Assembly: GCA_964360995.1 (NCBI GenBank)
Contig: CAYHYZ010000001.1
Location: forward strand, 31,548-65,821
Direction of reading: 5' to 3'
DNA from: an uncultured Candidatus Saccharibacteria bacterium
Lineage (GTDB): Bacteria > Patescibacteriota > Minisyncoccia > Ryanbacterales > HO2-45-13
DNA: 34,274 nt
Part shown: piece by piece, positions 3,001 to 22,903 of the stretch
How the letters are laid out: every line of letters starts with the position of its first letter
Position numbering within the stretch: the stretch's first letter is position 1
Position numbers and translations under genes: made by a program
Notes under the pieces: generated by a model
The model's input: the letters and a program-made list of their open reading frames with translations, nothing else
The model's database searches: none
Told to the model about the DNA's origin: nothing

Positions 3001-4845
3001 CCTAGTGAGAAACTCACCATTGATGGAAATATTTTATTTGGAAGCACTGCTGCGCGAACCATCAGCATACAAAAGACAGCAAGTGGCGCAGGCCAGAGTC
3101 TTTCCCTTACTGCGGGCGCAGCGAATGGTGGTAATACTGTCGGAGGTGCGGTGGTGATTACCGGAGGAGGAGGGGCAGGACTTGCTGCCGGTGGCGCGGT
3201 TACTGTCGTAGCCGGCGCAGGTTTTAATGGTGGTTCTGTGACAATAAATCCTACTGGAGGATTCACGACTGCCCTTAACGGATATATTGCACTCGGTAAT
3301 ACCATAGGCAATGTGGGAGTGGGGATGACTTCTCCTCTCTATAAATTAGAAGTACAAACAAGTAGTTCTACTTCATACGCTGCTCGGGTGTATAACACAA
3401 ATACTGGTACTGACGCAGATGGACTACTGATCAGTTTAGGTGTGGCAAACGCGAGTAGAACAACCGGGAATTATTTTGTCGGATTTTCAACCGCTGATGG
3501 AACCGTTGCTGGAAAGATCCAAGGAGGTGCAAGTGCTGTGGCCTATACAACTACGGGCGCGGACCTCGCGGAATATTTTCGGTTTGAAGGATTTGCGAAT
3601 ACACCAACATCCGGCGATGTTGTTATGCTTGATGCCTCGCAGCGTAAAACTGTGGTGCGGGCCGTATCTGGTTCTGGCGTTGCAATTGGCGTTGTTTCCA
3701 CAAATCCCGGATTTATTGGAAATGGACCGATCTGTGAAGTGAACGATAAAGATTGTGATGTAAATTATGAAAAATATAACGTACTCGTTGCGCTCTCCGG
3801 ACAAGTGCCCGTAAAAATCTCAAATGCGGATGGTAGCGTAGCTCCCGGGGACTCACTTACACCATCGGACATTGCTGGATATGCGAGAAAAGCAAAACGA
3901 GGCGACCAAGTTATTGGTATTGCGCTTGAGTCTTCAGGTGCCACGGCAACTTCAACCGTGGCAATGCTGGTAAATTTGGGTCACGCGAATCTCGATGAAG
4001 GAGTTTCTCACATCGCTACCGGTGAGAGTGGATGGACGGTGGACACAAACGGACGCATGACTGCGCGCGCGGACGTCGATATGAATAGCCAATCGATTCT
4101 TGGTGTGGCGGGGATCGTTTCTGCAACGGGAGATTGGTCTATTACTGCTGACGGAAGATTTAAGACTAAGCAGATAGTTGCCGAAACCATTGATGCCGAT
4201 CGTATTACCGCCAAGCGGTTTAGCATTTTGAACGTCGCGGACGCAAGTGAAAACACGATTGGTGCGGGAAGAATTCTGCGAGGGGACACCTCAACCACGA
4301 TTTATTCAAAATACATTTCGGCGAATTCAAAGATATTTGTCACGTTCACGAACGATCTCGGCGGGCGCTCGTGGTATATTGCCGAAAAACAGGGGCCAAC
4401 AGAGACTGGTACCACAGAAGGAATGTTCCGCATCGCAATTTCATCTGCGTCTCCAGACGACCTCAACTTTGACTGGTGGGTCGTAGATACCGCAGGAGAC
4501 GGAGCGACGAGTACCTCAATAAGTACCGATGGAAATGCTGGAAATGGACGAACGTCTGGCGGTGGGAATGGAGGACAGCGCGATGCAAGAGGAGGCACAG
4601 AAGTGCCTACACCGCCTGCGACAGAAAATACACCTGTCACCGAGCCAGCAAGCGATCCAATCTCGGCGCCAACTGCAGATCCTACTCCAGGTCCCGAGGA
4701 GTCTCCGACAGTCGAATCAAGTTCACTAGAACCTTCGACGACAATCGAGGAGCCTCCGGTGAATACTGACACCACTCCACCCGAAGCGCCCGTTACTGAT
4801 CCCGCACCAATCCCTGATGTACCAGTTGAACCAATAGCACCATGA
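1..4845 (+). CDS. Giant repetitive tail-fibre-like surface adhesin with Peptidase_G2-like intramolecular chaperone domain and Pro/Glu/Thr-rich tail (5'-truncated)
   Basis: Frame is open from base 1 (SSAANGLNLTAGCYAISGSC..., a repeat of 580-640), so the gene starts upstream. Many GNVGIGTxxP beta-repeats. GADLAEYF...IGVVSTNPG...VALSGQVPVKI...PGDSLT...VIGIALE at ~3556-3990 fits the G2-type autocleavage domain. Confidence 0.8.
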   Translation, partial: SSAANGLNLTAGCYAISGSCVTNNGGDANTLDTLDSLQFLRSDADDSFTGSNTLTIASAATLSIDGGLQIADTGIDFTGVNTNFAVTGDFTINSTEFVIDDGTNNVGIGDATPDSALEVVGGLMLSSAAAADGDRFVVTTGGNVGIGTSSPYAPLSVLGQAVASYFTATTSATSTFAGGIHTNLLNITSTTATSSAANGLNLTGGCFAINGGCVAGGSTNYVKTGTANRLAYYDTTGTITSENVFAVDAVNDRVGFGTTSPLATLSASSTDAVTALFDQRGTSDILQLQDSGVSVFVVKDGGNVGIGTTTPAGKLGIVGSQYLKQSAATQGSGIRLESSGTGYGDIYLTTNGALIMNTLNSPGTSNFIGAQSADNDYGFITYSSDAATWLNTYVTNTTVDYANLVVGDTQSTTGLVITANETVGVGSTTPWAKLSVEQGATGPVFVVADQGTSTPHLLVDGRGYVGSGTSTPWAQFSVEQGSSTPVFVVSDQGTSTPSFMVTGQGRTGINVTESQLSSTNSAVIGVSDATAYGGISQTPLGLINTNTTNNNFAGLAFQTLDTNSAIVGGARIDSIFTDHTPSSVDAEIAIQTTQNGSRTEKLRITAAGSVGVGSSTPWGTLSVEATSTGPMFVVSDQGTSTPFLYIGGNGRVSIGTTTTNSTLTVFNSTTADVTEILIDTGLAQASVQTTYALRGVDQFSVGVHDGDLDKFKISAGGTLGTTDRFVIDSSGNVGIGTSSPYLPLSVAGSGVFGGTSTASAFVATSTTASSTFANGLNLTGGCFALSGTCISAAGSNIWQDTSGVVNLVTSSNNVTIGGSSNFAKLAVDGDADEIQFLVQGHSVQNLDLLVVENSGLTDLFVVNSSGQVGIGTGGPANDLEVDTGLSGGIDIEYDNGALNFGELTFKDAGGDLWSIISWPHSSNLAGSTQNAGDLTFGTTSPYSLVLDRSGSVGVGSTTPWGTLSVEATSTGPMFVVSDEGTSTPFLIVDGRGYIGIGTSTPSEKLTIDGNILFGSTAARTISIQKTASGAGQSLSLTAGAANGGNTVGGAVVITGGGGAGLAAGGAVTVVAGAGFNGGSVTINPTGGFTTALNGYIALGNTIGNVGVGMTSPLYKLEVQTSSSTSYAARVYNTNTGTDADGLLISLGVANASRTTGNYFVGFSTADGTVAGKIQGGASAVAYTTTGADLAEYFRFEGFANTPTSGDVVMLDASQRKTVVRAVSGSGVAIGVVSTNPGFIGNGPICEVNDKDCDVNYEKYNVLVALSGQVPVKISNADGSVAPGDSLTPSDIAGYARKAKRGDQVIGIALESSGATATSTVAMLVNLGHANLDEGVSHIATGESGWTVDTNGRMTARADVDMNSQSILGVAGIVSATGDWSITADGRFKTKQIVAETIDADRITAKRFSILNVADASENTIGAGRILRGDTSTTIYSKYISANSKIFVTFTNDLGGRSWYIAEKQGPTETGTTEGMFRIAISSASPDDLNFDWWVVDTAGDGATSTSISTDGNAGNGRTSGGGNGGQRDARGGTEVPTPPATENTPVTEPASDPISAPTADPTPGPEESPTVESSSLEPSTTIEEPPVNTDTTPPEAPVTDPAPIPDVPVEPIAP

Positions 4846-11358: not shown

Positions 11359-11742
11359 ATGCGCGAGAGACAAGAGTATTCACTCGCACTCGCTATATTT
11401 AATTCTCGATTTATTCGCGCGGTGCTCGTGCTTGTATTGCTGACGCTCGGATGGAAAGTAACGGGCAGCGTAGGGGCGTATATGGAGTGGCAGAAAGAGG
11501 AGCGCGAAGCAATGGCTGTACAGGCGCAGTTGCTGAAACGTAAGGAAGACGTGCAAAAAAAACTTGATATGCTCGCGTCCCCCACAGAAAAAGAAATTGT
11601 GGTGAGGCAAGAATTTGTACTCAAAGAGCCTGGGGAGGAAACGGTAGTAATTATTGATGAAGGTATTGAGAGTGCGGCAACGATTACACAAGTATTGCCG
11701 TGGTATAAGCGTATGTGGTTATGGATGCATTTCGGAAAGTGA
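11359..11742 (+). CDS. Septum formation initiator family protein (FtsB/DivIC-like)
   Basis: TM helix, coiled coil, then EIVVRQEFVLKEPGEETVVII, matching the DivIC-type E..AR..L...KPGE motif. Confidence 0.75.
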   Translation: MRERQEYSLALAIFNSRFIRAVLVLVLLTLGWKVTGSVGAYMEWQKEEREAMAVQAQLLKRKEDVQKKLDMLASPTEKEIVVRQEFVLKEPGEETVVIIDEGIESAATITQVLPWYKRMWLWMHFGK

Positions 11743-12431
11743 AGCGCTCCCTTGGCGTAGGCCTTGGCGACGCACAATCTTATGAATTTGGAGCACAAAA
11801 TCCCGCACCAAACGCGGAGTTTAATGCCAACCGTCAGGGAAACAAAAGTGACTGGCGTTTTGGTGCGCGGATAAAAGGAGTCATTTTGCTCGTCCTTGTG
11901 GTGGTTGGGCTGGGATTTTTCTTCGTGGACCGTATTTCTTCACGTTATGCGTTAGCCACAGTCAATGGGCAGGAAATTAGTTACGCGGATTGGCAAATTT
12001 TTAGAGATGCATTTGAATCGTATCGCGCTACGCTTTCGAAACAGGGAGGAAATACTGAAGCATCAAAAGCGTTGGAGCAACTTTCAGCGGGAGATATTGA
12101 CCGCATGACGCTTGAGCAAATGATTGGACAGGTGATATTGCACGAGCATCTCACGCAAGAATTCGGACTTCGCGCAGAAGACATGGTACGCTCTGGGCTC
12201 AAAAAAGCGCGCGCCACGAGCGGAGATTCTGCGGAGAGATCGGACGCTCCGCTGTCTACATTTGAACAATTGGTGCTTGTGCCGCAAATCGAACGCGCGG
12301 TCGCAAGTGAACTCGTGCGTAGTAATGGTGGAGATTTTTCCAAGTGGACTTTAGGGCATCTTGCCGAGGCAACGGTGAGTGTGAGATGGTATACGTATAA
12401 ATGGGAGAATGGTACGCTCAAAAAGAAATAA
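11715..12431 (+). CDS. Membrane-anchored SurA N-terminal domain (foldase-like) protein
   Basis: TM helix then ALATVNGQEIS...TLEQMIGQVIL. Start uncertain (GTG 11739 overlaps the upstream stop). Confidence 0.6.
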   Translation: MVMDAFRKVKRSLGVGLGDAQSYEFGAQNPAPNAEFNANRQGNKSDWRFGARIKGVILLVLVVVGLGFFFVDRISSRYALATVNGQEISYADWQIFRDAFESYRATLSKQGGNTEASKALEQLSAGDIDRMTLEQMIGQVILHEHLTQEFGLRAEDMVRSGLKKARATSGDSAERSDAPLSTFEQLVLVPQIERAVASELVRSNGGDFSKWTLGHLAEATVSVRWYTYKWENGTLKKK

Positions 12432-12432
12432 T

Positions 12433-12503
12433 GCGGAATTGGTTTAGTGGTAGGACGCGACCTTCCCAAGGTTGAGGCGCGGGTTCGATTCCCGCATTCC
12501 GCA
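12433..12503 (+). tRNA. tRNA-Gly (CCC), CCA not encoded
   Basis: GCGGAAT/ATTCCGC acceptor stem; anticodon arm CGACC-TTCCCAA-GGTTG; T arm GCGGG-TTCGATT-CCCGC. Confidence 0.96.
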
Positions 12504-12547
12504 CAGCATATAAATACCGTCTGACATCAGGCGGTATTTATATGCTG
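12504..12547. repeat. Long inverted repeat directly after tRNA-Gly
   Basis: CAGCATATAAATACCG (12504-12519) and CGGTATTTATATGCTG (12532-12547) are perfectly complementary; the stem extends to ~20 bp with one G.T pair. Confidence 0.85.
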
Positions 12548-12552
12548 ATATA

Positions 12553-12680
12553 TGGTGAACGGGAATCGAACGGAACTTTTGTGCTGCCGGTGGCAGATGA
12601 AGCAAAAGTCAGTGGCTCCGGATGAGCGCCGACTCGTAGAGGGAAGGCGCGAAGGAGGAGGATTCCCGCATTCCGCACCA
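12553..12680 (+). repeat. tRNA-end unit 1: inverted tRNA T-arm copy, structured core, direct copy of the tRNA 3' end with CCA (att-like)
   Basis: CGGGAATCGAAC (12560-12571) is the reverse complement of tRNA 12483-12494; GATTCCCGCATTCCGCACCA at 12661-12680. Confidence 0.8.
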
Positions 12681-12693
12681 ATGTTGCCCAAAT

Positions 12694-12713
12694 AACACCG
12701 AAAGGTGTTTTTT
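12694..12713 (+). terminator. Intrinsic terminator-like hairpin
   Basis: AACACC-GAAA-GGTGTT followed by a T run. Confidence 0.55.
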
Positions 12714-12792
12714 GGTTCGCAACATTGAGTGCCCCGACAACACGTCGGGGCTTTGTTGAAAGTAAGAGCAAACAAATTGCTTTGTTTGCGTC

Positions 12793-12915
12793 GAGAATCG
12801 AAGGCCGGAGTATCTCGCCGCAGGCGAGCACGAGGAGGGGTCGAGAGTACTTAGCGAAGAAGGAGTGTAGCGACTGATGAGTTTAGTAACTCGTGACCGA
12901 TTCCCACATTTCGCA
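12793..12915 (+). repeat. tRNA-end unit 2 (same layout, different core)
   Basis: GAGAATCGAA (12793-12802) ... CGATTCCCACATTTCGCA (12898-12915, 16/18 match to the tRNA 3' end); internal hairpins such as CTCGCC-GCA-GGCGAG. Confidence 0.65.
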
Positions 12916-12951
12916 AAGAAAAAAATACTTAATATACTATGTATATATATT

Positions 12952-13572
12952 ATGCAGTGTCCGAACGACAACATTAAGATGCACCCAGTGAGGTTGGAAT
13001 CACACTATGGGCTTCGAGTTGATCTTGATCAGTGCGCCTTGTGTGGTGGCATTTGGTTTGATAAGTCAGAATTACATAGAATCAAACAAGGTGAAACAAA
13101 AAAAATTGATTTGCTGGACAGTAGAATATTTAGAGAAATTACTCATATTAAACGTGAAAAACTTTTGTGCCCACGGGATAACTCTAAACTTGTGAAGTTC
13201 GAGGATCGTTATTTTCTCAAGGATATTATTCTAGTGCGTTGCACGGCATGTGATGGGCAATGGCTAAATCGTGGTGAATTTACTAAATATCAAAAGGCTC
13301 GGCAAGAATCACCGAAGCCTAAAGAAAAAAATGCAGAGGATAAAATATTTGACGCTAGAATTGAGCGCATACTTGCGCGGCACAGCACTAGAGGAGCAGC
13401 CGATGTCATGGGAAAAGTTGGAAAATTTTTATCTACACCTATTACCCGTTATCCAATCGGCACACCACTTTCCGCTCTGTACGGAGCGAGCGTATCTGAA
13501 AGGCAGGAGCTGAACTATACCACTAATATCATAGTTGCCATTTTAAGCTCCGTGATTAGAAAAAGACCGTGA
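12952..13572 (+). CDS. Protein with two zf-TFIIB-type zinc ribbons
   Basis: MQCPND...DQCALCGGIWFDKSEL and LLCPRD...RCTACDGQWLNRGEF. Start placed at ATG 12952 because the longer ORF begins inside the repeat. Confidence 0.8.
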   Translation: MQCPNDNIKMHPVRLESHYGLRVDLDQCALCGGIWFDKSELHRIKQGETKKIDLLDSRIFREITHIKREKLLCPRDNSKLVKFEDRYFLKDIILVRCTACDGQWLNRGEFTKYQKARQESPKPKEKNAEDKIFDARIERILARHSTRGAADVMGKVGKFLSTPITRYPIGTPLSALYGASVSERQELNYTTNIIVAILSSVIRKRP

Positions 13573-13601
13573 TACTATCGCCGTCGACGCTTTGATGTGA
13601 C

Positions 13602-13706
13602 CAGATGAAGCAAAAGTCAGTGGCTCCGGATGTACACCGACTCGAAGAGGGAAGGAGGGAAGGAGGGAGGAGGATTCCCCTGCCGGCAGGTAGGCGCATT
13701 CCGCAC
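13602..13706 (+). repeat. tRNA-end unit 3: direct repeat of unit 1 (12594-12678) with a 16-bp insertion in the tRNA fragment
   Basis: CAGATGAAGCAAAAGTCAGTGGCTCCGGATG is identical at 12594-12624 and 13602-13632; the unit ends GATTCC[CCTGCCGGCAGGTAGG]CGCATTCCGCAC. Confidence 0.85.
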
Positions 13707-13759
13707 ACATTAATTGCTCGTTTTCTACGGTACCCACATTCATGGGTTATTTATTCATC

Positions 13760-13768
13760 TGCTATAAT
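13760..13768 (+). promoter_or_regulatory. Extended -10 promoter (TGcTATAAT), probably leaderless transcript
   Basis: TGCTATAAT ends 6 nt before ATG 13775. Confidence 0.6.
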
Positions 13769-13774
13769 GCTTCT

Positions 13775-15538
13775 ATGAACATGGGGTATTTCATTCCCTC
13801 TTTTTCGGTTAAAAAGTACGCGACAAAAGGCGTTGCGCTGCTTATGTCTATCGTTGTGGTCGCTCTGGTCCTTCTCCATCGGGTGGGCCCAGTAAGCGCA
13901 GACGTAGCTACGTTTTTTCCAGAAACGTGTCTGGGGGGATGGCAGAATCCGCAGTACGCCGCGAACACACCTAATGTTGTGGCAGGATTAGCGGAAGAAT
14001 TTACTGAAAATAACTCGGCAACGATCGTTGATACTATTTCGCAATTATTTTGCGGCGAATTTTCCGGCGAAATCCCCGAAAACGCAATTCACAAGAAGGT
14101 AACGTTAAAATTTTCCTGGGCGTTAGCAAGTCCTGAAAGTGAAGCTACTGACACGGCATCGACGACCCCAGCATTTGAGTCGAGCACGTCAACGAATGCC
14201 ACAAATGGATCGCCAGACTATACCGGCGCTCCAGCCGCAGTATCTGTGCCCCTGCTGTCTGAAGCGCTAGCAACGTCCACGGAGACGAGCGTGGAAAATT
14301 CTATCGTTGAGCAAGTGGTGGTCGCAACGTCGACCATTTCCGATGGAGATACCGTTTCCGCGCCGAGTGAGGCTGACCTAGACTCTTCCGAAGTTCCGTC
14401 AACAGCAGATGACATGGCTGAGTCCGCCGAACCGGGGTCCCCAGAGTTCACGTCCACCACCGAGTCAGCACCCGCAGAACCAGCGTCTGCGGAACCTGTG
14501 CCGGACGTATCTTTTTTTCAACAATATATTTTTAGGAGCGCACACGCGCAGGAAACGGAAAGCGGACAGCAAGAGAATATTAATGTGGTTGCTACGCCAA
14601 GTGCCGACACTGCATCATCCACTGCCGCCACCGCGAGCACTTCAGTTTCAGAAATTCCTGCGGGCTCGATTTTGGAAGTACGCTATACCGTTGATGGAGA
14701 GCACTGGGAGTCGCTTGGATACGTCTCACGCCTCGGGCCTGATGTAAGTTTTGAAATACCAGTTTCGGTGGTGAACTCTATTGCCACACTCTCAAATGTC
14801 CAAATTGCACTGCACACGCTTTCGTCGATTGATACGGTCCCGATGATATACGTAGACGCGATGTGGCTTGATATTGAGTACGAGGTCCCGAGAGAAGTGC
14901 CAACATATTCTGATGAGGGTGTCGCGTCGGTATCCTTGAGCGTGCGCCCTGCCGAAGGGGTGATTGAGATTATTGAACCGGAGTATCTGTCGGATGTGAG
15001 CTCGACTACTCCTCCCGCATCTACGACTGAAGGCACGTTCAATGGCAGTAGTGGCGGTGGAGGCACTACAAATAGTAGTGGTATCAGCGGTGGGAATGGA
15101 GGAGGGGAGGCAAATGTGTATGACGAGGATGTGCGCGCAACGTCCTCGACGTTCACATTATTTTCAGATGCTCCCGCATCTCGCGTGTTTAGCGCCGCCC
15201 TCACCGTTGATGCGAATGCGGAGCATTCGTGCGCAATGGCGCGGTACCATATTGATATATCGGCAGTATCGCAAGCAGAAACGCGCGTGATTTTGCGTCC
15301 GGATGGCGCGGGGCCATATACGTTAACAATAGGAAGTTTGCCGGGAGGTATTGATTTGCGATTTATTGAAGGAGATCCGTACCAATATCAACCACGCACT
15401 GAAGAATTTGCCCTAAATATGATGGTGTATAAATCCGAGCACGCACGTATAGGAGATTTTAACGTGCCGATTATCTACACGAAAAAAGGGGCACAAGACT
15501 CATCAGTCATTTGCAAGCTAAATATCATCAATCAATGA
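13775..15538 (+). CDS. Secreted or membrane-anchored acidic Ser/Thr-rich surface protein, first gene of the surface cluster
   Basis: N-terminal hydrophobic segment; beta-rich domains separated by long S/T/A/E low-complexity linkers; ATGA overlap with the next gene. Start chosen from the promoter position. Confidence 0.7.
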   Translation: MNMGYFIPSFSVKKYATKGVALLMSIVVVALVLLHRVGPVSADVATFFPETCLGGWQNPQYAANTPNVVAGLAEEFTENNSATIVDTISQLFCGEFSGEIPENAIHKKVTLKFSWALASPESEATDTASTTPAFESSTSTNATNGSPDYTGAPAAVSVPLLSEALATSTETSVENSIVEQVVVATSTISDGDTVSAPSEADLDSSEVPSTADDMAESAEPGSPEFTSTTESAPAEPASAEPVPDVSFFQQYIFRSAHAQETESGQQENINVVATPSADTASSTAATASTSVSEIPAGSILEVRYTVDGEHWESLGYVSRLGPDVSFEIPVSVVNSIATLSNVQIALHTLSSIDTVPMIYVDAMWLDIEYEVPREVPTYSDEGVASVSLSVRPAEGVIEIIEPEYLSDVSSTTPPASTTEGTFNGSSGGGGTTNSSGISGGNGGGEANVYDEDVRATSSTFTLFSDAPASRVFSAALTVDANAEHSCAMARYHIDISAVSQAETRVILRPDGAGPYTLTIGSLPGGIDLRFIEGDPYQYQPRTEEFALNMMVYKSEHARIGDFNVPIIYTKKGAQDSSVICKLNIINQ

Positions 15539-17421
15539 GTCTGAAGGTTTTTCTAAGGTACCTATTCATGAGTGTATTTGTATTCGTGTGGATATTTTCA
15601 GGATGGCCGCAATTTTTCCGCCTTCCTCCGAGTGTTTCGAATGTCGAAGCGGCGATCTCCGGAGTAACCGCGCGCGGATCAAACACGGTCGGAACCGGAT
15701 CAAATGCATCACTTGCTGTTTCTCCTTCTGGAAACGTGGTCACCGATAAGTTACTTTTTGTGGCAGTGACGGCGGACAATATTGGTACGGCAGATGGGTG
15801 TGGTGGATCAGAACATTCGCTGAAAGATACCGATAATCACGCATGGGTAAAAATATTTGAGTGTATCGAAACTGACGGGTCTGCTGATGACGGAAATACC
15901 ACTTCACTGTTTGTCACAAAAGCGACCACGACCATTAGTACGACCGATGTGATTACCGTCACATTTAGTTCAGCACGTACAGACGCCATCATCAGTTTAG
16001 TGGAGGTAACCTTTGGAGCCGGGAAAACATTCGCTATTGCGCAGACTGGCGTGGGGCAAAACGCGCTTTCTGCAACGATTTCGGTCACGTCACGCGAATA
16101 TTTACTGTTTGGGCTGTTGGGTGCGGAAGGTGAGGACACCGCAAAGACCCCAGACGCGGGAGGCGTGTACGGAGAAAATCACGATCTCATCTCCACAAGT
16201 AGCGGGCTTCCTGCGGTGAATGTACAGCAACACGTACAGACCAATATCGCGACACTCACTGGAGACACGGTAGATACGGCAGACATTACCTATACGAATG
16301 CCCTGCAAACACTCACTGCCGTGTACGAGGTGGACGATCCCACATATGCGCAGTCCAACTATCGGTTTTTCAATAACGCAGACTCTACCGATGTCGGCTC
16401 TGTGCTCGCGGGTGAAGGCGCGTCCGCCACGCTTGCTACGGCAGGGGCTGCGTTTCGCTTGCGACTACTCTTGCATGTGGGGGGGACAGGAAGCATTTTG
16501 TACCAAAGCGGCCAATATTTTAAGCTGCAATTTGCCGCGCGTTCCGGAGATTGTGACACAGGGTTTTCTGGAGAAACATATGCGGACGTTACGGCGGCAA
16601 CGGTGCTTGCATATAACGATAACGCAACACCAACAGATGGATCCAATTTGACGTCTAACGGGAACGATCCTACTCATACGGGGCACAACGTCAACAATCA
16701 GACATATGAAGAAGCAAATGATTTTACTAATTCACGCTTTAATGTTCCCACTGGGGATGATAGTCAGTGGGATTTTTCACTCAAAGATAATGGAGCTCCT
16801 CCGGGCACGACATACTGTTTTCGTGTGGTAAAATCCAATGGTACACAGATTACGACGTACACCGTGATTCCGGAAATTGCTACTGCAGCTTCATCATTGA
16901 CGTTCGTGGTCTCGACCAATGTATTCCAAAATTTTGCTCCCGGTACACCAGTATTTGCAACCACAACATTGAGCGTGGAGACAAACAACGCTGCGGGGTG
17001 GAATGTGACAGTCGTGCGAGATGATGGAGATACTACGCTCGATCTTGACTCGGACGCAACAACGAATATTACTGATCAAACAGCGTGGTCGCCCGGAGCC
17101 GCAACCACATCAGCTGGAAACTCGGTGCGCATTGCTACGTTCGATAACTCGGGGGATATACTTGCATTTCGTGTGATGACCGCGAGCGGATCCGTGCCAT
17201 TTCGCGCATCCACGTGGTGGGGGGCGATTGATGAGTATATTGATAATGCGAGCTCCTTGTGGGCGGGGCTACCAAGTACCGCAAAACAAATAGGGAATAC
17301 AAATGTGACTTCTGGCGGCGCTCCGATGCTTAACACCGTTCTCTATTATCTGGACGTACCAGTCTCACAAAAAGCAGGAGCATATTCAGGAACCATTACG
17401 TATACGGCGACAGCAAATTAA
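15535..17421 (+). CDS. Large secreted multidomain protein with C-terminal WxL-like domain
   Basis: Signal-like N-terminus; C-terminal ~175 aa (ATTTLSVETNNAAGWNVTV...AGAYSGTITYTATAN) paralogous to the next gene and ending in the WxL/pilin-type Y..TITYT strand. Confidence 0.7.
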   Translation: MSLKVFLRYLFMSVFVFVWIFSGWPQFFRLPPSVSNVEAAISGVTARGSNTVGTGSNASLAVSPSGNVVTDKLLFVAVTADNIGTADGCGGSEHSLKDTDNHAWVKIFECIETDGSADDGNTTSLFVTKATTTISTTDVITVTFSSARTDAIISLVEVTFGAGKTFAIAQTGVGQNALSATISVTSREYLLFGLLGAEGEDTAKTPDAGGVYGENHDLISTSSGLPAVNVQQHVQTNIATLTGDTVDTADITYTNALQTLTAVYEVDDPTYAQSNYRFFNNADSTDVGSVLAGEGASATLATAGAAFRLRLLLHVGGTGSILYQSGQYFKLQFAARSGDCDTGFSGETYADVTAATVLAYNDNATPTDGSNLTSNGNDPTHTGHNVNNQTYEEANDFTNSRFNVPTGDDSQWDFSLKDNGAPPGTTYCFRVVKSNGTQITTYTVIPEIATAASSLTFVVSTNVFQNFAPGTPVFATTTLSVETNNAAGWNVTVVRDDGDTTLDLDSDATTNITDQTAWSPGAATTSAGNSVRIATFDNSGDILAFRVMTASGSVPFRASTWWGAIDEYIDNASSLWAGLPSTAKQIGNTNVTSGGAPMLNTVLYYLDVPVSQKAGAYSGTITYTATAN

Positions 17422-17500
17422 CAAGCAATGATATCCACACGTAATCACGATCGTATCAACATAGCGGTGCGTACCATGATACAATAAAAAACAACGAGTT

Positions 17501-18196
17501 ATGAGTTACTTTCGATCATTGGTTTACATACACAATGAAGATCGCGCGCAGTTGTTTGTTGCTATTGCGTTAGTGATGGCACTGCTGTTTGGACTATATG
17601 GAACGTATGCCTATGGAGAGGCGGTGAGTTTGACCGTGACTGTACAAACCGCGCTGTCGTTTACGACATCTTCAGATTATTTTGGGAACTTCACTCCGGG
17701 TACCGCAAAATTTGCGACAACCACGCTTTCGGTGACCACCAACAACGTCGCAGGATGGAATATTATTCTCTCTGGAGATGACCAAAGCCCAACGAATACC
17801 GTCTGCGATCTGAATAGTGATGCATCCGTTGGTCTTACGGATCAATTAGAGTGGATCGCCGGTGCCGCCACCACATCAGCGGGGAATGCGGTACGAATTG
17901 CGACGCTTGATTCGAGCGCGGACGTACTTGCATTTCGTGTGATGACCGCGAGCGGATCCGTGCCATTTCGCGCTGGGACTTGGTGGGGGACCACCGACGA
18001 CTACGCCGACGCCGCAACCACGCTGTGGGCAGGTATTGCGAGTTCGACAGGGTCCCGACAAATTGGAAATGCGGGTACCGGATCATATAGCGCTTCTACA
18101 CACTTAAATACGGTACTCTACTATCTCGACGCACCGTCAACGCAGCAATCCGGAGCCTATACCTGCCCCTTGACCTATACTGCAACTGGCAACTAA
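17501..18196 (+). CDS. Small secreted WxL-like protein (candidate major subunit)
   Basis: Signal peptide ending AYG-EA; ATTTLSVTTNNVAGWNIIL...SGAYTCPLTYTATGN; own TGaTACAAT box at 17477-17485. Confidence 0.7.
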   Translation: MSYFRSLVYIHNEDRAQLFVAIALVMALLFGLYGTYAYGEAVSLTVTVQTALSFTTSSDYFGNFTPGTAKFATTTLSVTTNNVAGWNIILSGDDQSPTNTVCDLNSDASVGLTDQLEWIAGAATTSAGNAVRIATLDSSADVLAFRVMTASGSVPFRAGTWWGTTDDYADAATTLWAGIASSTGSRQIGNAGTGSYSASTHLNTVLYYLDAPSTQQSGAYTCPLTYTATGN

Positions 18197-18249
18197 TATT
18201 GAGCTTGCCGGGGCAGCTTCCTTTCCGATTAGGGGATTCACTCTCTTGA

Positions 18250-19164
18250 ATGAATATTCGCGCAACTGGGCTTATCATCGCTGTGCTTACCACTGTTTTT
18301 TTTGCGCCCACGTTTCAATGGGTACATGCAGACGCGGGGTTGAGTATTCAACCAATTAAAGTATCACAAACATTGAGGCCCGGTGATGAGGTCACTGGAT
18401 TTTTTTCGCTGACAAATGCGGGGAGTGAGCGAGTAGAAGTGACGCTCACGGTTGAAGATTTTGTACCGACGGCCGGAACACCTAATATCAATTTTATCGG
18501 TCGAGCCGAGGGCGTCACCACGGTTCGGGACTGGATTACACTGGGAAACGAATTGGTGTTTCAATTTGATCCGGGGGCATCACGGCAAATTCCGTTTACC
18601 ATTACAGCGCCTCCCACTGCAGAGCCCGGAAGTCACTTTGGCGTGGTATTTTTTAAGGCAACACAGATTGACGCCGCGGGACAGATAAAAGTAGGAACCC
18701 GAGTGGGATCTTTGATATTTATTACTGTTCCGGGGAATCAATTACAAAAAGGGAAGATTATAGACTTTTCTGCGCCAGTATTTTCCCAGCGCGCCCCTGT
18801 GCCATTTAAAATCAAATTTGAAAATACGGGCACCGTGCACTATGAGCCGAAAGGAGAAGTGGTAGTGAAAAATATTTTTGGGCGCGAAGTAGGTGTGGTT
18901 CCAGTTGCGGGGTACGCGGTGCTTCCCACGGGCGTGAGGGATTTGGACGTTGCGTGGGATCCTGAAAAAATAGCCATTGGCCGCTACACTGCGTCCGCAG
19001 CCATTTACGACGGGGAGGGCAACGCACTCACGACGCAAGAACTTTCATTTTATGTTATTCCGGTGTACTTGATACTCGGAATCATTGCGGGTGTATTTGT
19101 TATTTTTCGCATACTGCTATTCATCAAGCGACGCATTCGCATACAAGTGGTGCCGAATAGTTGA
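18250..19164 (+). CDS. DUF916/DUF3324-like WxL-interacting membrane protein
   Basis: Signal peptide; LSIQPIKV..LRPGD...LTNAG, IPFTITAPPTAEPGSHFGVVFF, FENTGTVHYEPKG, VLPTGVR; C-terminal TM helix plus basic tail. Confidence 0.75.
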   Translation: MNIRATGLIIAVLTTVFFAPTFQWVHADAGLSIQPIKVSQTLRPGDEVTGFFSLTNAGSERVEVTLTVEDFVPTAGTPNINFIGRAEGVTTVRDWITLGNELVFQFDPGASRQIPFTITAPPTAEPGSHFGVVFFKATQIDAAGQIKVGTRVGSLIFITVPGNQLQKGKIIDFSAPVFSQRAPVPFKIKFENTGTVHYEPKGEVVVKNIFGREVGVVPVAGYAVLPTGVRDLDVAWDPEKIAIGRYTASAAIYDGEGNALTTQELSFYVIPVYLILGIIAGVFVIFRILLFIKRRIRIQVVPNS

Positions 19165-19167
19165 TGC

Positions 19168-20244
19168 ATGTCGTTGATAGACAAAGTGTCCTGGGCGGCA
19201 ACACTCCCTCGCTTACTCGGTAGTCAGATTTCTCTACCGTATATTGGAATTACCACGGTTTTTTTTATTTTCCCGTTCATATTATGGTCGCTCGCACAGG
19301 TTGTAGGAGTCGTGAATGATGCACGCGCAACGACTATCCAAGTGACGATCATCGGAAGTTACACATGCAATGATACGATAGATAATGACGGAGATTCACT
19401 GGTTGATTATCCTGCAGACACCGGCTGTGAATCTACGACAGATACAGATGAGTATAATGCACCGCCACCAAGTGGTGGTGGTGGTGGGGGGGGTGGTGGT
19501 GGTAGTGGGAGCGGATTTACACTTCCTACCGGTGTTATTTTTCGCGGAAAAGCATATCCCGGAAGTTACGTCGCACTGTTAAAAGATTCGCAGTCCGTTG
19601 CGGTTTCAAAAGCGGGACCAGATGCGAATTTTGAAATTGCGCTTACCGGGCTTTCCGGAGGAGTGTACTCATTTAGTATATGGTCCGCGGATGCAAACAA
19701 TCTCCGATCCACGAACCAAACATTTAGCGTTACAATTACTTCGGGCGTGACCACGGTGATCAGCGGCATATTTATTCCGCCCACCATTGCTGTCGATAAA
19801 TCAGAAGTCAAACATGGCGATGTCATTACGTTTTTTGGTGCTTCTGCGCCAAGCGCAGGGATCACATTGATAGTAAATTCAGAACCCGAAATTATGAAAA
19901 ACACCACCGCAGGGAGCGATGGACTCTGGTCGCACCAGTTCGATACGTTAGCGCTCACTAAAGGCGCACATAGTGGAAAATCACGAGCGAACAAAGATGG
20001 TCTCATCACAGATTTTTCTGCATCGGTTGGGTTTATTGTTGGCGTGGAAAATGTCATCGCCGAACCACCAAAAGACATCACAAAAGGCGAAGTAAATAAT
20101 GATGGTCGCGTGAATATTGTTGATTTTTCAATCGCCGCATATTGGTTTGGTCGCCCCAACCCACCCACAAACGTGGATTTGAATAAAGATGGAAAATTAA
20201 ATTTGGTTGATTTTTCTATTATGGCGTTTTATTGGACTGGATAG
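19168..20244 (+). CDS. Surface protein with Ca-binding CxDxxDNDGD motif, Gly linker, Ig-like domains and C-terminal dockerin-like domain
   Basis: CNDTIDNDGDSLVDYPADTGC; tandem EF-hand-like repeats GEVNNDGRVNIVDFSI and VDLNKDGKLNLVDFSI. Confidence 0.75.
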   Translation: MSLIDKVSWAATLPRLLGSQISLPYIGITTVFFIFPFILWSLAQVVGVVNDARATTIQVTIIGSYTCNDTIDNDGDSLVDYPADTGCESTTDTDEYNAPPPSGGGGGGGGGGSGSGFTLPTGVIFRGKAYPGSYVALLKDSQSVAVSKAGPDANFEIALTGLSGGVYSFSIWSADANNLRSTNQTFSVTITSGVTTVISGIFIPPTIAVDKSEVKHGDVITFFGASAPSAGITLIVNSEPEIMKNTTAGSDGLWSHQFDTLALTKGAHSGKSRANKDGLITDFSASVGFIVGVENVIAEPPKDITKGEVNNDGRVNIVDFSIAAYWFGRPNPPTNVDLNKDGKLNLVDFSIMAFYWTG

Positions 20245-20245
20245 T

Positions 20246-21205
20246 ATGCGGCGCACACATACGGACGGGAGCACTATTTCACACCGAGCGCATCTCATGT
20301 TGCGAATCATTGGAGCGATTGTTTTTTTGCTCGTATTTGGTACAGAAGCGCACGCGGCTACGATTTTTTTTGAACCGCCTACAGCGGATTTTCGTGTGTT
20401 CGATTCGGTGCGCGTGGACGTGTATGTAGAAACGGAAGGAGAAACTATCAATGCAGTCGAGGGAACGCTCATATATCCGAGTGACACATTGCGACTGACG
20501 GGCATCTCCGACGGCGATTCCGTGATTTCATTGTGGGTGGAACGTCCGCGCGAAGTCCGGCCGGGCGAGATACGTTTTTCCGGCATTATTCCCGGAGGGT
20601 TTTCAGGGGTGTTGCAACCGGACAGCCCCATCGTGAAAGGGGGGAAGTTGTTGCGTCTTGAGTTTGTCACTGAATCAACCGGGGACGTGATTATCAACGG
20701 CGTAGATGTTCACGTACTGCTCAATGATGGTAATGGCACGCGCGCGTTTGTGACGATGCTACCATTTGATGGAGCGGTGGTAAGCAACGTGCCGCATGTG
20801 ATCATTCCCCCATCCGACGAAGATGCTCCAGAGCCGTTTCTTGTGAGCCTACACTCCGAACAAGCGGTATATGACGGAAAGTTTTTTATCATTTTTTCGA
20901 CGACTGATAAAGACTCTGGCGTGGATCACTATGAGGTATGTGAAGAAAAAAATATACTCATTTCCAAATGGTGCGTGAATGGGTGGACGACAGCGACGTC
21001 CCCCCACCTGATTGCGGATCAAGCGCTGGAGAGCACGATCAAGGTGAAAGCGATTGACCGCAGTGGTAATGAACAAATCGCCGTACTGCCAGCGGAAGTG
21101 CAAACAATTGATTGGTGGTTGGCAGGAGTAGTGGTCTTTAGTATCTGTGTGTTTGCGCTGATCCTGCTCATCGTTGCTCGCAAGAGATATTTCTCTCGCG
21201 CATGA
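20246..21205 (+). CDS. Membrane-anchored cohesin-domain protein
   Basis: Signal AHA-A; VRVDVYVETEGETINAVEGTLIYP...SVISLWVERP...IRFSGIIPGG...VLLNDGNGT; C-terminal TM helix. Alternative start at 20297. Confidence 0.7.
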   Translation: MRRTHTDGSTISHRAHLMLRIIGAIVFLLVFGTEAHAATIFFEPPTADFRVFDSVRVDVYVETEGETINAVEGTLIYPSDTLRLTGISDGDSVISLWVERPREVRPGEIRFSGIIPGGFSGVLQPDSPIVKGGKLLRLEFVTESTGDVIINGVDVHVLLNDGNGTRAFVTMLPFDGAVVSNVPHVIIPPSDEDAPEPFLVSLHSEQAVYDGKFFIIFSTTDKDSGVDHYEVCEEKNILISKWCVNGWTTATSPHLIADQALESTIKVKAIDRSGNEQIAVLPAEVQTIDWWLAGVVVFSICVFALILLIVARKRYFSRA

Positions 21206-21220
21206 TATAATATACTTCGT

Positions 21221-22741
21221 ATGGACGCCTCGCTCGTTCTTTCACTGTTTCGCGTGCTGCGGACCGGGTTTGTTGCGCTCGTCTTAGCGATACTTGTTTC
21301 CGCTCACTTCGCGGTTGCGGCAGATCTCACTATTTCACCCACCACCGGATCGTATGCTGTTGGTCAACAAATGACTGCGACCATTGTGGTGAACAGCGCC
21401 GATCAGGCCATGAACGCTGCGTCCGGAGTTATTTTGTTTCCAAAAGACACAGTAGAAGTCGTTGCACTCTCTAAAGTGGGCAGTATCATTTCGTTGTGGG
21501 TGCAAGAGCCATTTTTTTCCAATACCGATGGTGTTGTGCGGTTTGAGGGCGTCGTACTCAACCCGGGGTATACGGGCGCAAACGGCAAAATTCTTTCAAT
21601 TACTTTTCGCGCAAAAGCTGCAGGAAATGCTATGCTCTCCATCGATACAAGCTTCGTGCTCGCAAACGATGGCAAGGGTACTAATATTTTAATCAAATCT
21701 GTACCGGCATCCTATACCATCGGTGGAGCATCGTCTCCTGCTCCAACGTCACCGAGTGCCGGCATCCCGGTACCGGAAGTCGTCTCAACGTCTCACCCCG
21801 ATCAGCAATCCTGGTATGCACTACCAGACGTGCGGGTGTCTTGGCAGAATCCTTCGGGGGTGACGGCGGTACGTGTTTGGACCAACCAAGATCCGAACAC
21901 CATCCCAACCAATACGTACGCTCCTCCGATTTCGGAAAAAACACTTACGGATATACCTGACGGAGTACGGTATTTTCATGCGCAGTTTCGCACGTCGGCA
22001 GGGTGGGGACCATCAACTCACTTTCGATATCAAATTGATACGGCAAAACCGACTAACATTACTGCGGAGCAACAAGTGGACGGGCTGGAAGCCGGAACGG
22101 TTCGATTAGCTATTACGGCGCTTGATGATCGCTCTGGTATCCAGAAATATATTGTTGAAGAGAATGGTAAGATACTCACGGAAAAAAGTGCAACGGCGAG
22201 CACTACGATTGATATTCAAGGACTTTCCGCAGGAGCGCATACGCTACGTGTTCGCGCACTCGATGGCGCAGGGAACGCAATAGAAAAAGATATTGAAGTA
22301 ATCGCAACGGCAGCTCCGATTAAGGAAGTTCCGGTTGCTCCTATTCCTACAGAGACTACGCCACCACGTACCGCCTTCAATTACCTGTGGGCACTTTGGA
22401 TAGTTATCGGCGTAATCGTAATACTATTGTTTAGTGTCGGATTATGGTTTTTGCGAGGCAAGCCGCGTACGCGCACGCCGCAACCCCCAAAGAAGGCTGA
22501 TACTTCTGATATGTATTCCGATACGCGCACTATTCGAGAACTACAAGAAGTCATTTCCGCATTTCATCATCGAGTCGACGCGCTCGAAAACAACACAATG
22601 AAGGGAAATGTGTATCAGGATGAACTTGTGCAAATACAAAAAATGAAAACCGACATAGATACCATGCAACTGAGGCTCAAGGGGAGAATCGACGAACTGG
22701 AGCGAAAAATGAGTTTAAAGAAAGAGCCTCCTCGCGTATAG
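21221..22741 (+). CDS. Membrane-anchored cohesin-domain protein with Ig-like domains and cytoplasmic coiled coil
   Basis: ATIVVNSADQAMNAASGVILFP...SIISLWVQEP...VRFEGVV...VLANDGKGT (paralogous to the previous gene); IDTAKP and GAHTLRVRALDGAGN Ig-like motifs; TM helix; coiled-coil tail. Confidence 0.75.
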   Translation: MDASLVLSLFRVLRTGFVALVLAILVSAHFAVAADLTISPTTGSYAVGQQMTATIVVNSADQAMNAASGVILFPKDTVEVVALSKVGSIISLWVQEPFFSNTDGVVRFEGVVLNPGYTGANGKILSITFRAKAAGNAMLSIDTSFVLANDGKGTNILIKSVPASYTIGGASSPAPTSPSAGIPVPEVVSTSHPDQQSWYALPDVRVSWQNPSGVTAVRVWTNQDPNTIPTNTYAPPISEKTLTDIPDGVRYFHAQFRTSAGWGPSTHFRYQIDTAKPTNITAEQQVDGLEAGTVRLAITALDDRSGIQKYIVEENGKILTEKSATASTTIDIQGLSAGAHTLRVRALDGAGNAIEKDIEVIATAAPIKEVPVAPIPTETTPPRTAFNYLWALWIVIGVIVILLFSVGLWFLRGKPRTRTPQPPKKADTSDMYSDTRTIRELQEVISAFHHRVDALENNTMKGNVYQDELVQIQKMKTDIDTMQLRLKGRIDELERKMSLKKEPPRV

Positions 22742-22829: not shown

Positions 22830-22903
22830 TGGAGCCGAGAGTGGGAATCGAACCCACATTCCTACTTTACGAAAGTAGTGTTCTGCCATTGAACTATATC
22901 GGC
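22830..22903 (-). tRNA. tRNA-Thr (CGT), CCA encoded
   Basis: Reverse complement GCCGATATAGTTCAATGGCAGAACACTACTTTCGTAAAGTAGGAATGTGGGTTCGATTCCCACTCTCGGCTCCA. Confidence 0.95.

Follow-up and report, generated by a model that had tools for sequence, protein, structure and literature searches.

We propose, with a probability of about 0.55, that the tRNA-Gly(CCC) gene in a 34,274-nucleotide stretch of DNA (hereafter the window) carries in its T-loop a tandem stack of three miniature, enzyme-less mobile insertions, which would have entered by site-specific strand exchange with the help of an enzyme acting in trans. This class of folded tRNA inserts is widespread and apparently undescribed; a literature search found no publication describing it.

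The tRNA-Gly(CCC) gene of the window has no encoded CCA, and its 3' end from G57 (12487) onwards forms the proximal copy of a direct repeat (Table 1). The last 17 nt recur exactly at 12661-12677, there followed by CCA (12661-12680). A second copy lies at 12898-12915 (16 of 18 positions identical, with 12899-12915 showing two mismatches to the last 17 nt), and a third at 13673-13707, in which GATTCCC (13673-13679) is separated from a 13-nt exact match (13695-13707) by a 14-nt insert (13680-13693) that includes an 11-nt palindrome. A search for the tail with up to three mismatches gave these three matches against 0.12 expected, a number reached in none of 100 shuffles. The resulting inserts measure 174 bp (insert 1, 12487-12660), about 238 bp (insert 2) and about 775 bp (insert 3); as judged from comparison with the end of unit 2 in G001, distal copy 2 from 12906 on is probably the 3'-end copy introduced by insert 3. 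Across the source genome (G000), nine of 37 tRNAs have a sense copy of their own tail (at least 10 nt) within 450 nt downstream, and the upstream matches are neighbouring tRNAs only.

Table 1. Features of the tRNA-Gly(CCC) locus in window coordinates (G001, a congeneric genome; G002, a genome of the same family).
Feature	Position	Strand	Basis or remark
tRNA-Gly(CCC), intact	12433-12504	+	ARAGORN; Rfam tRNA 67 bits; acceptor stem pairs 7/7
Perfect hairpin, 21-bp arms, directly behind tRNA-Gly, part of insert 1	12504-12547	+	Inverted repeat; not in G001 locus
Anti-T-arm strand of unit 1	12553-12571	+	Inverted repeat; MFE fold
Family A core copy 1, junction-proximal segment of insert 1	12594-12660	+	Direct repeat; alignment; third copy on contig C21 of G000
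Distal copy 1, ancestral tRNA-Gly 3' end with encoded CCA, displaced by insert 1	12661-12680	+	Exact 17-nt repeat; G001 match; CCA encoded in G002 tRNA-Gly
Trailer common to G001, two terminator-like hairpins (12694-12709, 12731-12751)	12681-12765	+	G001 locus; terminator scan
Family B unit (unit 2): hairpin H0 (12768-12789) and three-way junction, P1 = 12793-12800 with 12898-12905	12766-12905	+	Alignment; structure counts; model R1; G001 ortholog
Distal copy 2, tRNA-Gly-like 3' end (16/18)	12898-12915	+	Repeat search; G001 unit 2 end comparison
Cargo gene of insert 3, 206-aa protein with two Zn_ribbon_TFIIB domains	12952-13572	+	Pfam E 2.3e-19; AT-rich
Family A core copy 2 (unit 3), ends in GATTCCC	13602-13679	+	91% direct repeat; no anti-T-arm strand upstream
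Distal copy 3 of tRNA-Gly 3' end, interrupted at 13680-13693	13673-13707	+	Direct repeat; similar palindrome at equivalent place in G001 unit 2
Seven-ORF block, large mostly unannotated proteins	13742-22741	+	Weak dockerin/cohesin/Ig matches; located after unit 3 and before tRNA-Thr; this locus lacks it in G001 and G002
tRNA-Thr(CGT), ancestral convergent neighbour of tRNA-Gly(CCC)	22830-22903	-	G002: tRNAs 64 nt apart; G001: tRNA-Thr after unit 2
prfB, after tRNA-Thr(CGT)	23318-24295		PCRF and RF-1 domains

Comparison with relatives indicated that the array is accreted DNA, because in G002 the tRNA-Gly(CCC) gene, which encodes its CCA, lies only 64 nt from the convergent tRNA-Thr(CGT); the spacing in the window is 10.3 kb. 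The tRNA-Gly locus of G001 has the same flank, a 30-nt match of 100% identity running from the tail of distal copy 1 into it, and an orthologous unit 2 followed by tRNA-Thr. Its proximal insert, however, is another one, likewise with the right junction at C56. A 636-aa ORF of the seven-ORF block, used as query, was not found in G001 or G002. Two other sites, at tRNA-Glu(CTC) and tRNA-Ser(CGA), are empty in G000 and filled in G001, and in both filled sites the native flank hairpin comes after the distal copy. Furthermore, the G001 insert at tRNA-Ser(CGA) is by eye nearly identical, trailer included, to the one that G000 carries at a non-orthologous gene, tRNA-Ser(TGA), with about nine in ten bases the same, and the presence of units varies between isoacceptors as well as between congeneric genomes. 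These loci show the units to be insertions that are gained and lost among congeneric genomes, with the same element at different tRNAs.

Units 1 and 3 (family A) share a 65-nt core of 91% identity (12594-12658 and 13602-13666), within which one stretch of 31 nt matches perfectly. In unit 1, positions 12560-12571 are the exact reverse complement of tRNA-Gly 12483-12494 and are preceded by a TGGTG stretch, complementary to the CACCA end; the MFE fold (-50 kcal/mol, z -2.98) pairs the anti-T-arm strand with 12661-12680. The fold of the unit 3 region (13560-13710) was not more stable than shuffles (z +0.92). A third core copy, 87-89% identical, is located on contig C21 of G000 downstream of tRNA-Pro(CGG) and terminates with 10 nt of tRNA-Pro sequence; the anti-T-arm strand is missing from two of the three copies. 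BLASTN of unit 1 against 60 relatives found core copies nowhere but in G000, and pattern scans for the core gave none in the genome contig collection and none in the metagenome contig collection. A single match in viral contigs sits within a GC-rich coding region and is a chance match.

Unit 2 represents a different and far more widespread family (family B), a distinction that the first-pass annotation of this DNA had missed. It follows the ancestral tRNA-Gly end and trailer on the same strand. In the closing helix P1 of family B, an anti-T-arm strand is base-paired to a stretch that repeats the local tRNA from C56 on, the 5' strand following each local T-loop sequence, and the junction is a conserved GUGAC followed by the tRNA-specific sequence from C56. 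In each unit the closing helix consists of two copies of the tRNA T-arm, one inverted and one direct, a point again overlooked at first (upstream of unit 3 the anti-T-arm strand is absent). Unit 2 scored 98.2 bits (E 1.8e-23) against the covariance model R1, in part by construction because it is one of the 18 sequences behind the model; beyond it, the family is backed by the G001 ortholog and more than 120 independent R1 matches. Of 101 related Patescibacteria genomes, 39 contained such matches, with a maximum of 12 in one genome and some arranged as tandem pairs with a period of 157-175 nt. Since R1 detects family B only, genomes counted as unit-free may contain other families. Units 1 and 3 gave no R1 match at 12548-12680 or 13560-13710 with E up to 1; they have only the general layout in common with family B, namely anti-T-arm strand, branched fold and tRNA tail.

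A covariance-model search, which had been suggested as a check, placed a tRNA or tmRNA directly upstream of the family B unit in 28 of 29 loci, and in 26 of 28 the unit ends in at least 10 nt of the 3' end of that tRNA, from C56. A motif search gave 24 matches, 17 of which are real family B units, all in CPR-type MAGs; the other seven (L015, L017, L027-L030, L033) lack the unit layout, lie in non-CPR MAGs and are chance matches. Unit sizes are uniform (about 110-190 nt), and some units form tandem pairs with a period of 157-181 nt. CCA is encoded in the distal copy at nine of 41 loci and in the proximal copy at none. The proximal acceptor stem pairs 7/7 in all 42 loci, and the distal copy has mismatches in ten of the 42. 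The direct duplication spans 7 to more than 50 nt with a variable right side, and in several loci extends into the trailer and H0.

The cargo zinc-ribbon gene of insert 3 has a GC content of 0.36-0.38 against about 0.49-0.52 in its surroundings, and a promoter scan placed a promoter-like site (12910-12938) ahead of it. Its homologs occur in ten of 101 genomes and in none within its own order; in seven of nine relatives' loci they sit just upstream of tRNA-Ser(GGA) without a nearby R1 unit, so the gene is not a regular passenger. Another cargo protein gene lies within locus L019.

The observations of the first-pass annotation are borne out by these results, and its interpretation in part. It had described the three downstream recurrences of the tail, non-tRNA sequence with a 31-bp perfect match shared by units 1 and 3, and an AT-richer zf-TFIIB gene between units 2 and 3, all of which we recovered. 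Its reading of the shared sequence as an element-side segment beside the junction agrees with the homolog that ends in a tRNA-Pro fragment behind tRNA-Pro, and its serial stack of very small non-autonomous inserts, one with a gene, agrees with the G001 and G002 loci and the empty and filled sites. It had named as fatal an invariant locus in relatives, a core without homologs at other tRNAs, or an assembly artefact; the locus is variable, the core has its tRNA-Pro copy, and the sequence is reproduced in independent runs.

In line with that annotation, which had noted no integrase or transposase in the window, Pfam detected no recombinase or transposase domain in 20 window ORFs (the 1614-aa partial ORF at 1-4845 and lepA left out), and no long inverted repeats lie in 12300-13900. 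The layout of large-serine-recombinase elements at tRNA ends, a serine recombinase with cargo between inverted repeats of roughly 100 bp, is absent from this locus. The single PF00589 match of G000 is an Xer-like tyrosine recombinase gene on contig C21, not on the window contig, and a whole-genome search of G000 gave no serine recombinase (PF00239, PF07508) and no reverse transcriptase. By hand tally, 28 of the 39 unit-bearing genomes have exactly one tyrosine recombinase, and serine recombinases occur in 17 of 39 unit-bearing versus 31 of 62 unit-free genomes. The near-complete genomes G030, G041 and G063 have 7-8 units each but only a single tyrosine recombinase and no serine recombinase. 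The distance between units and xer is 150-1400 nt in G030, G047 and G066 and 2.2 kb in G000, a closeness that reflects shared synteny because tRNA-Arg lies between in each case. A recombinase acting in trans, as postulated at first, was not identified; neither tyrosine nor serine recombinases co-occur with the units among the R1-searched relatives, and the resident enzymes do not track the elements. The contigs of the sequencing runs showed neither excision products nor empty-site alleles nor circle junctions, and no autonomous relative was found among the loci inspected.

The mobile-insertion model that we favour can be outlined as follows. Each insert would bring a replacement tRNA 3' end and a hairpin trailer at its upstream end, and a folded module at its downstream end. 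The tRNA would stay intact because the insert supplies this replacement, and its tail would recur after each unit because the old 3' end is displaced downstream. The folded module is a three-way junction in which the anti-T-arm strand pairs with the T-loop/T-stem copy, with the branch point at the insertion junction, and its closing helix would offer the target sequence as a duplex. The tRNA gene and the element, the latter folded or as a circle, may then undergo site-specific strand exchange, by an enzyme presumed to act in trans. A tentative extension is that the elements are self-guided and protein-less: the anti-T-arm strand may be a re-writable guide to the T-loop/T-stem of a chosen tRNA or tmRNA, with a host housekeeping enzyme, putatively the single Xer recombinase or a structure-specific nuclease, resolving the three-way junction, whose branch point lies exactly at T55/C56, into an insertion.

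Alternatively, the units may be deletion remnants of integrase-borne islands or prophages that integrated serially at the tRNA-Gly T-loop, with only attL, attP arms and attR left, similar to CIMEs. Integrated tDNA islands are recognised by tail repeats that start in the T-loop, together with a restored target gene and a displaced fragment (PMC4383910; PMC1762012). The array with its single cargo gene fits accretion, and relatives do have large serine-recombinase elements at the ends of tRNA genes, one of them lying between the tRNA and the unit (L060). However, no integrase-bearing version of the module was found among 29 R1 loci and 17 motif loci, the unit sizes are uniform rather than scattered, and three genomes with 7-8 units have one tyrosine recombinase and no serine recombinase. 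The module is moreover kept as a fold with compensatory changes, and its 5' strand matches each local tRNA, which attP arms are not known to do. We thus consider this origin unlikely.

The fold itself bears on another alternative, namely that the units have a function as non-coding RNAs linked to their tRNA, such as a role in tRNA maturation or mimicry of its 3' half, so that the tail would be part of the RNA and not a scar. In family B, 89.3% of cells are paired against 77.3% in shuffles (none of 500 reached it) and 27-45% when the structure is slid, and 17 of 29 pairs have changed on both sides; these compensatory changes show that the fold is kept. The three-way junction, its strong covariation, the invariant G.U pair, the purine-rich internal loop and the excess of GU/UG over AC/CA pairs on the tRNA-sense strand (39 versus 17) all suit an RNA, and stand as a counterpoint to the insertion-element reading. 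Unit L074 retains the P1 pairing although its sequence differs from its tRNA, so the pairing itself is under selection, again as expected of an RNA. Nevertheless, terminator-like hairpins separate the tRNA from the units, the distal acceptor part is decayed in ten of 42 loci, presence differs among congeneric genomes and isoacceptors, and protein-coding cargo can lie inside (insert 3 of the window; L019). No Rfam family matched the units: in 11500-14500 no non-tRNA family reached threshold (with E up to 10, tRNA and noise), and 14 unit-bearing loci gave only tRNA and tmRNA at threshold. An RNA function of this kind seems improbable. By eye, the CUGAUGAG stretch of unit 2 has a hammerhead-like look, which is not conserved in G001 and matches no ribozyme family; a likeness of the cores to tmRNA or RNase P, also by eye, found no counterpart in ARAGORN or Rfam.

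An origin without mobility, through local tandem duplication, replication slippage or gene conversion involving the T-loop and a similar sequence downstream of it, is already disfavoured and very improbable. Tandem pairs and the duplication of trailer and H0 along with the tail would agree with it, but the proximal trailer is unlike the native one, native flank lies behind the distal copy in the empty and filled sites, CCA is distal only (nine loci versus none), and one and the same element is found at tRNAs that are not orthologous, as well as on separate contigs with a different tRNA fragment attached in each case. Duplication into the trailer and H0 also fits homologous recombination, a further counterpoint to the insertion-element reading.

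The host is an ultra-small groundwater bacterium, and G000 is a 57-contig MAG. Contig pieces with no differences span the whole stretch in four runs of three studies. As expected for a true repeat, the run contigs break at the 31-nt repeat, and none of them therefore connects the two core contexts in their order. Contig joints connect 12475 to 12661 (unknown letters between), 12518 to 12837, and 12810 to 12872, the last being a G001-like allele of unit 2. A mis-joined repeat can practically be dismissed despite the fragmented MAG and these breaks, given the identical pieces from independent studies and the same architecture in dozens of independent genomes.

Among known systems, genomic islands and prophages that tyrosine integrases insert into tRNA or tmRNA genes by a T-loop crossover (Islander-type islands; mycobacteriophage Ms6) are similar in their tRNA or tmRNA 3' target, the restored gene end, the displaced far-end fragment, the repeat that starts in the T-loop and the possible stacking of several inserts. 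The window shows the split and restored target with its displaced 3' fragment, but no integrase among the 20 scanned ORFs. Compared with these islands, the present inserts are of 110-800 bp and lack an integrase gene, no cognate integrase was found in most host genomes, and the junction has a conserved folded module with one strand reverse-complementary to the target T-arm. CIMEs are decayed ICEs of kb size that depend on a known related ICE for their mobilisation. CIMEs and tandem ICE accretions resemble the units in being integrase-less, bounded by att repeats and stacked beside the target site, whereas the units have no known parent element and possess a compact selected fold.

Integron cassettes have a fixed anchor and a structured end site of varying sequence and kept fold; the cassettes are mostly tiny, and paired ends repeat the sequence of the insertion point. 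The attC site consists of one imperfect hairpin that contains R''/L''-L'/R' boxes and the core GTTRRRY. In both attC sites and the attP hairpin of CTX phage, the folded strand presents a duplex copy of the target. The integron likeness drawn by the first-pass annotation holds for the layout, a tandem array of three units, each ending in a structured site and one with an ORF. It fails for the defining parts: no IntI lies near the array, the anchor is a tRNA T-loop and not attI, the core is specific to each tRNA, and instead of an attC-type hairpin the unit has a three-way junction with a leading hairpin and GUGAC followed by C56. CTX phage and IMEX use the host XerCD via a folded single-stranded attP, with dif as target. 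They are alike in idea only, having no recombinase of their own and a folded strand that recreates the target duplex, whereas the units target a tRNA rather than dif and nothing ties them to Xer. MITEs, REP, ERIC and RPE are small, multi-copy, non-coding and hairpin-rich, as are the units; however, the units lack the combination of terminal inverted repeats with a fixed short target duplication. Their duplication is of variable length, their inverted pair consists of an element strand and a target copy, and their position behind a tRNA is strict (28 of 29 loci).

The genomes of Patescibacteria (CPR) are tiny and encode few of the classical enzymes of mobile elements. In one genome, the present class of inserts fills up to a quarter of the tRNA genes, and insert 3 of the window indicates that cargo genes can ride along. 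Even on a conservative reading, repeated tRNA tails in these genomes should not be annotated as markers of prophages or islands. The target-matched helix suggests that the target is chosen by pairing, which, if confirmed, would be reprogrammable. Should the elements be mobile without having their own enzyme, they would represent a new route of gene flow and genome plasticity across a very large share of bacterial diversity, and if they are self-guided, ultra-small bacteria without integrases would own an integron-like platform for gene capture at their tRNA genes.

The last 17 nt of the tRNA-Gly(CCC) gene recur exactly downstream, followed by CCA, and recur again with two mismatches. A third copy is split, its GATTCCC heptamer and a 13-nt exact match being separated by a 14-nt insert with an 11-nt palindrome. 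Allowing at most three mismatches, three tail matches stand against 0.12 expected, a number reached in 0/100 shuffles. Units 1 and 3 of the three stacked small insertions have 65 nt in common at 91% identity, including a perfect 31-nt run, and the zf gene, the zinc-ribbon cargo gene of insert 3, has a GC content of 0.36-0.38 against a background of 0.49-0.52. The whole stretch is covered by zero-difference contig pieces from four runs of three studies, and pieces from these runs end at the 31-nt repeat. Given the repeats, core, gene and contig pieces as found, the first-pass annotation had accurately described a tRNA-Gly 3' end occurring three times downstream, a non-tRNA sequence with a 31-bp perfect match shared by units 1 and 3, and an AT-richer zf-TFIIB gene between units 2 and 3.

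Features of the tRNA-Gly locus, in window coordinates
Feature	Position	Remark
tRNA-Gly(CCC)	12433-12504	
Insert 1	12487-12660	family A
Unit 1 5' strand	12553-12571	inverted repeat I5
Tail copy 1	12661-12677	exact, then CCA
Insert 2	~12661-12898	family B
Tail copy 2	12899-12915	two mismatches
Insert 3	~12906-13679	zf gene and family A core
zf gene	12952-13572	between units 2 and 3; two Zn_ribbon_TFIIB domains
Tail copy 3, heptamer	13673-13679	GATTCCC
GC-rich palindrome site	13680-13693	
Tail copy 3, remainder	13695-13707	13-nt exact match
Seven-ORF block	13742-22741	between unit 3 and tRNA-Thr
tRNA-Thr	22830-22903	same as in G002
prfB	23318 (start)	

Comparative analysis revealed that the units are insertions, and mobile. 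In the window's own genome (G000; a 755-kb assembly in 57 contigs, 96% complete) tRNA-Glu(CTC) is plain, and in a congeneric genome (G001) it carries a ~210-nt insert between 18-nt repeats; the flank hairpin follows the tRNA in G000 and the distal tail copy in G001. The same empty/filled pattern is seen between the two genomes at tRNA-Ser(CGA), whose G001 insert agrees by eye, trailer included, in about nine of ten bases with that at the non-orthologous tRNA-Ser(TGA) of G000. Units are common to G000 and G001 at four tRNAs and different at nine. Furthermore, the copy of the tRNA 3' end proximal to the tRNA completes the acceptor stem 7/7 in all 42 loci, with the distal copy mismatched in 10, and CCA is encoded after the distal copy at 9/41 loci and after the proximal copy at 0/41. 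This is the asymmetry to be expected of a distal copy that represents the displaced original.

The window tRNA-Gly locus is accreted DNA. In a same-family relative (G002), whose tRNA-Gly(CCC) encodes CCA at its end, 64 nt with a single hairpin separate this gene from a convergent tRNA-Thr(CGT) and prfB; given the positions of tRNA-Thr and prfB in the window, 10.3 kb lie between tRNA-Gly and tRNA-Thr there. From distal copy 1 on, which matches at 100% over 30 nt, G001 and the window share the tail with CCA, unit 2 and, between them, a trailer containing two terminator-like hairpins. Upstream of the shared part the inserts differ: that of G001 (L008 = G001:C9, minus strand, ~2345-1510) is ~790 bp long, splits the old tRNA-Gly(CCC) after position 44, brings a complete, different tRNA-Gly(CCC) with CCA plus a membrane ORF, and ends on its right exactly before C56 of the old tail. 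An invariant locus in relatives would have spoken against the serial capture proposed in the first-pass annotation, and the locus proved variable, with a different insert in G001 and only 64 nt in G002.

In G001, tRNA-Thr lies directly behind unit 2, without the zf gene, unit 3 or the 9-kb block in between. Insert 1, missing from G001, is the youngest, and insert 2 is older than the G000/G001 split. For insert 3, the simplest account is an entry into the GATTCCC of the tail copy that follows unit 2: this heptamer stands on both flanks of the insert, and the palindrome-bearing rest of the tail copy is found directly behind unit 2 in G001 and behind unit 3 in the window. The zf gene has its sole G000 copy in this array; homologs of its protein are encoded immediately upstream of tRNA-Ser(GGA) in 7/9 relatives' loci (L097-L105). 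The seven ORFs of the block encode large, mostly unannotated proteins with weak dockerin, cohesin and Ig-domain matches, and a search with the 636-aa ORF as query found none in G001 or G002. As the block is missing at this locus in both genomes, it seems to be another island at this hot spot.

Scanning the 5' motif of unit 2, which represents family B, over one genome per species yielded 24 loci, of which 17 are real units, all from CPR-type MAGs (two labelled Gammaproteobacteria); the other seven lack the unit layout and appear to be chance matches. Upstream of 15 of the 17, within the DNA fetched, lies a same-strand tRNA (Cys, His, Met, Arg, Leu, Pro, Glu or Gly) or tmRNA (three loci). An alignment of 18 units revealed a leading hairpin, H0, with compensatory changes at 9/9 pairs, a closing helix P1, and two arms, P2 having a purine-rich internal loop and P3 an invariant G.U pair. 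Both sides change at 17/29 pairs of the structure, and 89.3% of its cells are paired, versus 77.3% on shuffling (0/500) and 27-45% with slid partners. The covariance model of family B, R1, matches 39/101 genomes of the class at up to 12 sites each (10 in G000); several genomes contain tandem pairs with a period of 157-175 nt. A linkage of such matches to tRNAs, suggested in the first-pass annotation, was confirmed for the unit 2 family: of 29 R1 loci retrieved from genomes other than G000, 28 directly follow a tRNA or tmRNA, and at the exception a serine-recombinase element is interposed. At 26/28 loci, a conserved GUGAC of the unit is joined directly to the tail of the local tRNA, of which 10 nt or more from C56 on are present. 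The P1 5' strand varies with the local T-loop and T-stem, pairing being kept for a dozen T-loop sequences; one unit keeps the pairing with a sequence unrelated to its tRNA.

At L060 (G084:C16), a 289-aa membrane-protein gene framed by ~85-bp inverted repeats has a tail-bearing family B unit on one side and, close by on the other, a serine recombinase gene with one in-frame TGA; a serine-recombinase element has thus inserted upstream of an older unit. Two family B units of G000 are each immediately preceded by an Rfam group I intron match (L091, G000:C26:2800-3800, 622-902 minus, 86.7 bits; L092, G000:C5:7500-8600, 275-505 plus, 69.2 bits), with no ARAGORN tRNA there; a tRNA gene split by a group I intron is the probable explanation in both cases.

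The 5' strand of unit 1 is reverse-complementary to the T-loop and T-stem of the tRNA; pairing of this anti-T-arm strand with the tail copy closes the predicted branched fold of the unit (-50 kcal/mol, z -2.98). Other G000 tRNAs display the same order of tRNA, hairpin, anti-T-arm strand, GC-rich hairpins and sense tail copy. Of the 37 G000 tRNAs, nine are followed within 450 nt by 10 nt or more of their own tail in sense orientation; a tenth downstream match and every upstream match are merely neighbouring tRNAs. The core of units 1 and 3, family A, has a third copy (87-89% identical) on G000 contig C21 behind tRNA-Pro(CGG), with 10 nt from the T-stem and acceptor of tRNA-Pro at its end in place of the tRNA-Gly tail, so that the core does occur at another tRNA with that tRNA's fragment, as the first reading had envisaged. 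Counting against a common build, the unit 3 and C21 copies lack the anti-T-arm strand, and the fold of the unit 3 region is no more stable than shuffles (z +0.92). Family A is a genome-specific second family and has jumped between tRNA-Gly and tRNA-Pro.

Other peculiarities accompany these tRNA loci. Two related kinds of short GC-rich palindrome (CTGCCGGCAGG-like and CCGCCAGCTGGCGG-like) are found repeatedly, in the window, at L008, L039 (G000:C11) and L044 (G000:C13, behind tRNA-Asp), and at L084 and L086 of G001. Their place is often inside displaced tail copies between T-stem and acceptor strand, and they may represent an additional inserting element of still smaller size. At L040 (G000:C21, ~2700-3000), a small ORF, GIY-YIG-like by eye, lies between tRNA-Pro(TGG) and tRNA-Pro(CGG), flanked by two copies of one tRNA-Pro trailer and adjoining a duplicated 5' fragment of tRNA-Pro; G001 has 160 nt between these two tRNAs and no such gene there. 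Behind tRNA-Val(TAC) (L043, G000:C5) and tRNA-Cys (L039), the duplication takes in the whole tRNA 3' half, starting at the anticodon loop (42 nt at tRNA-Val), and the two copies are separated by a degenerate tRNA-like 5' part; such duplications form a class distinct from the T-loop units. ARAGORN reported 37 tRNAs and zero tmRNA in the 96%-complete G000.

G000 encodes one tyrosine recombinase, Xer-like and adjoining rpsO; searches across this genome found neither a serine recombinase nor a reverse transcriptase. By hand tally, exactly one tyrosine recombinase is present in 28/39 unit-bearing genomes, and serine recombinases occur in 17/39 of them versus 31/62 other genomes; in three near-complete genomes, 7-8 units coexist with a single tyrosine recombinase and zero serine recombinases. 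The proximity of xer to units in four genomes was rejected as a link, being shared synteny with tRNA-Arg. Terminator-like hairpins between tRNA and units argue against simple co-transcription, and the excess of GU/UG over AC/CA on the tRNA-sense strand (39 vs 17) leaves room for an RNA, or a top-strand DNA fold. We favour a putative mechanism in which strands would be exchanged at the T-loop between the tRNA gene and a folded or circular form of the element, by an enzyme that would be supplied in trans.

According to PMC4383910, tDNA-targeting integrative elements restore their target and displace a fragment; the window units are alike in both respects, but carry no integrase gene. The likeness to an integron drawn in the first-pass annotation stands for the layout of the array, whereas the defining parts, an integrase gene and an attC-type hairpin, are missing. 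Full-text literature searches found no description of such units, and Rfam holds no family of this kind. New in this study are a cargo-bearing array of three units, its ancestral empty state, within-genus comparisons of empty and filled sites, the CCA asymmetry, and a second, genome-specific family at tRNA-Gly and tRNA-Pro.
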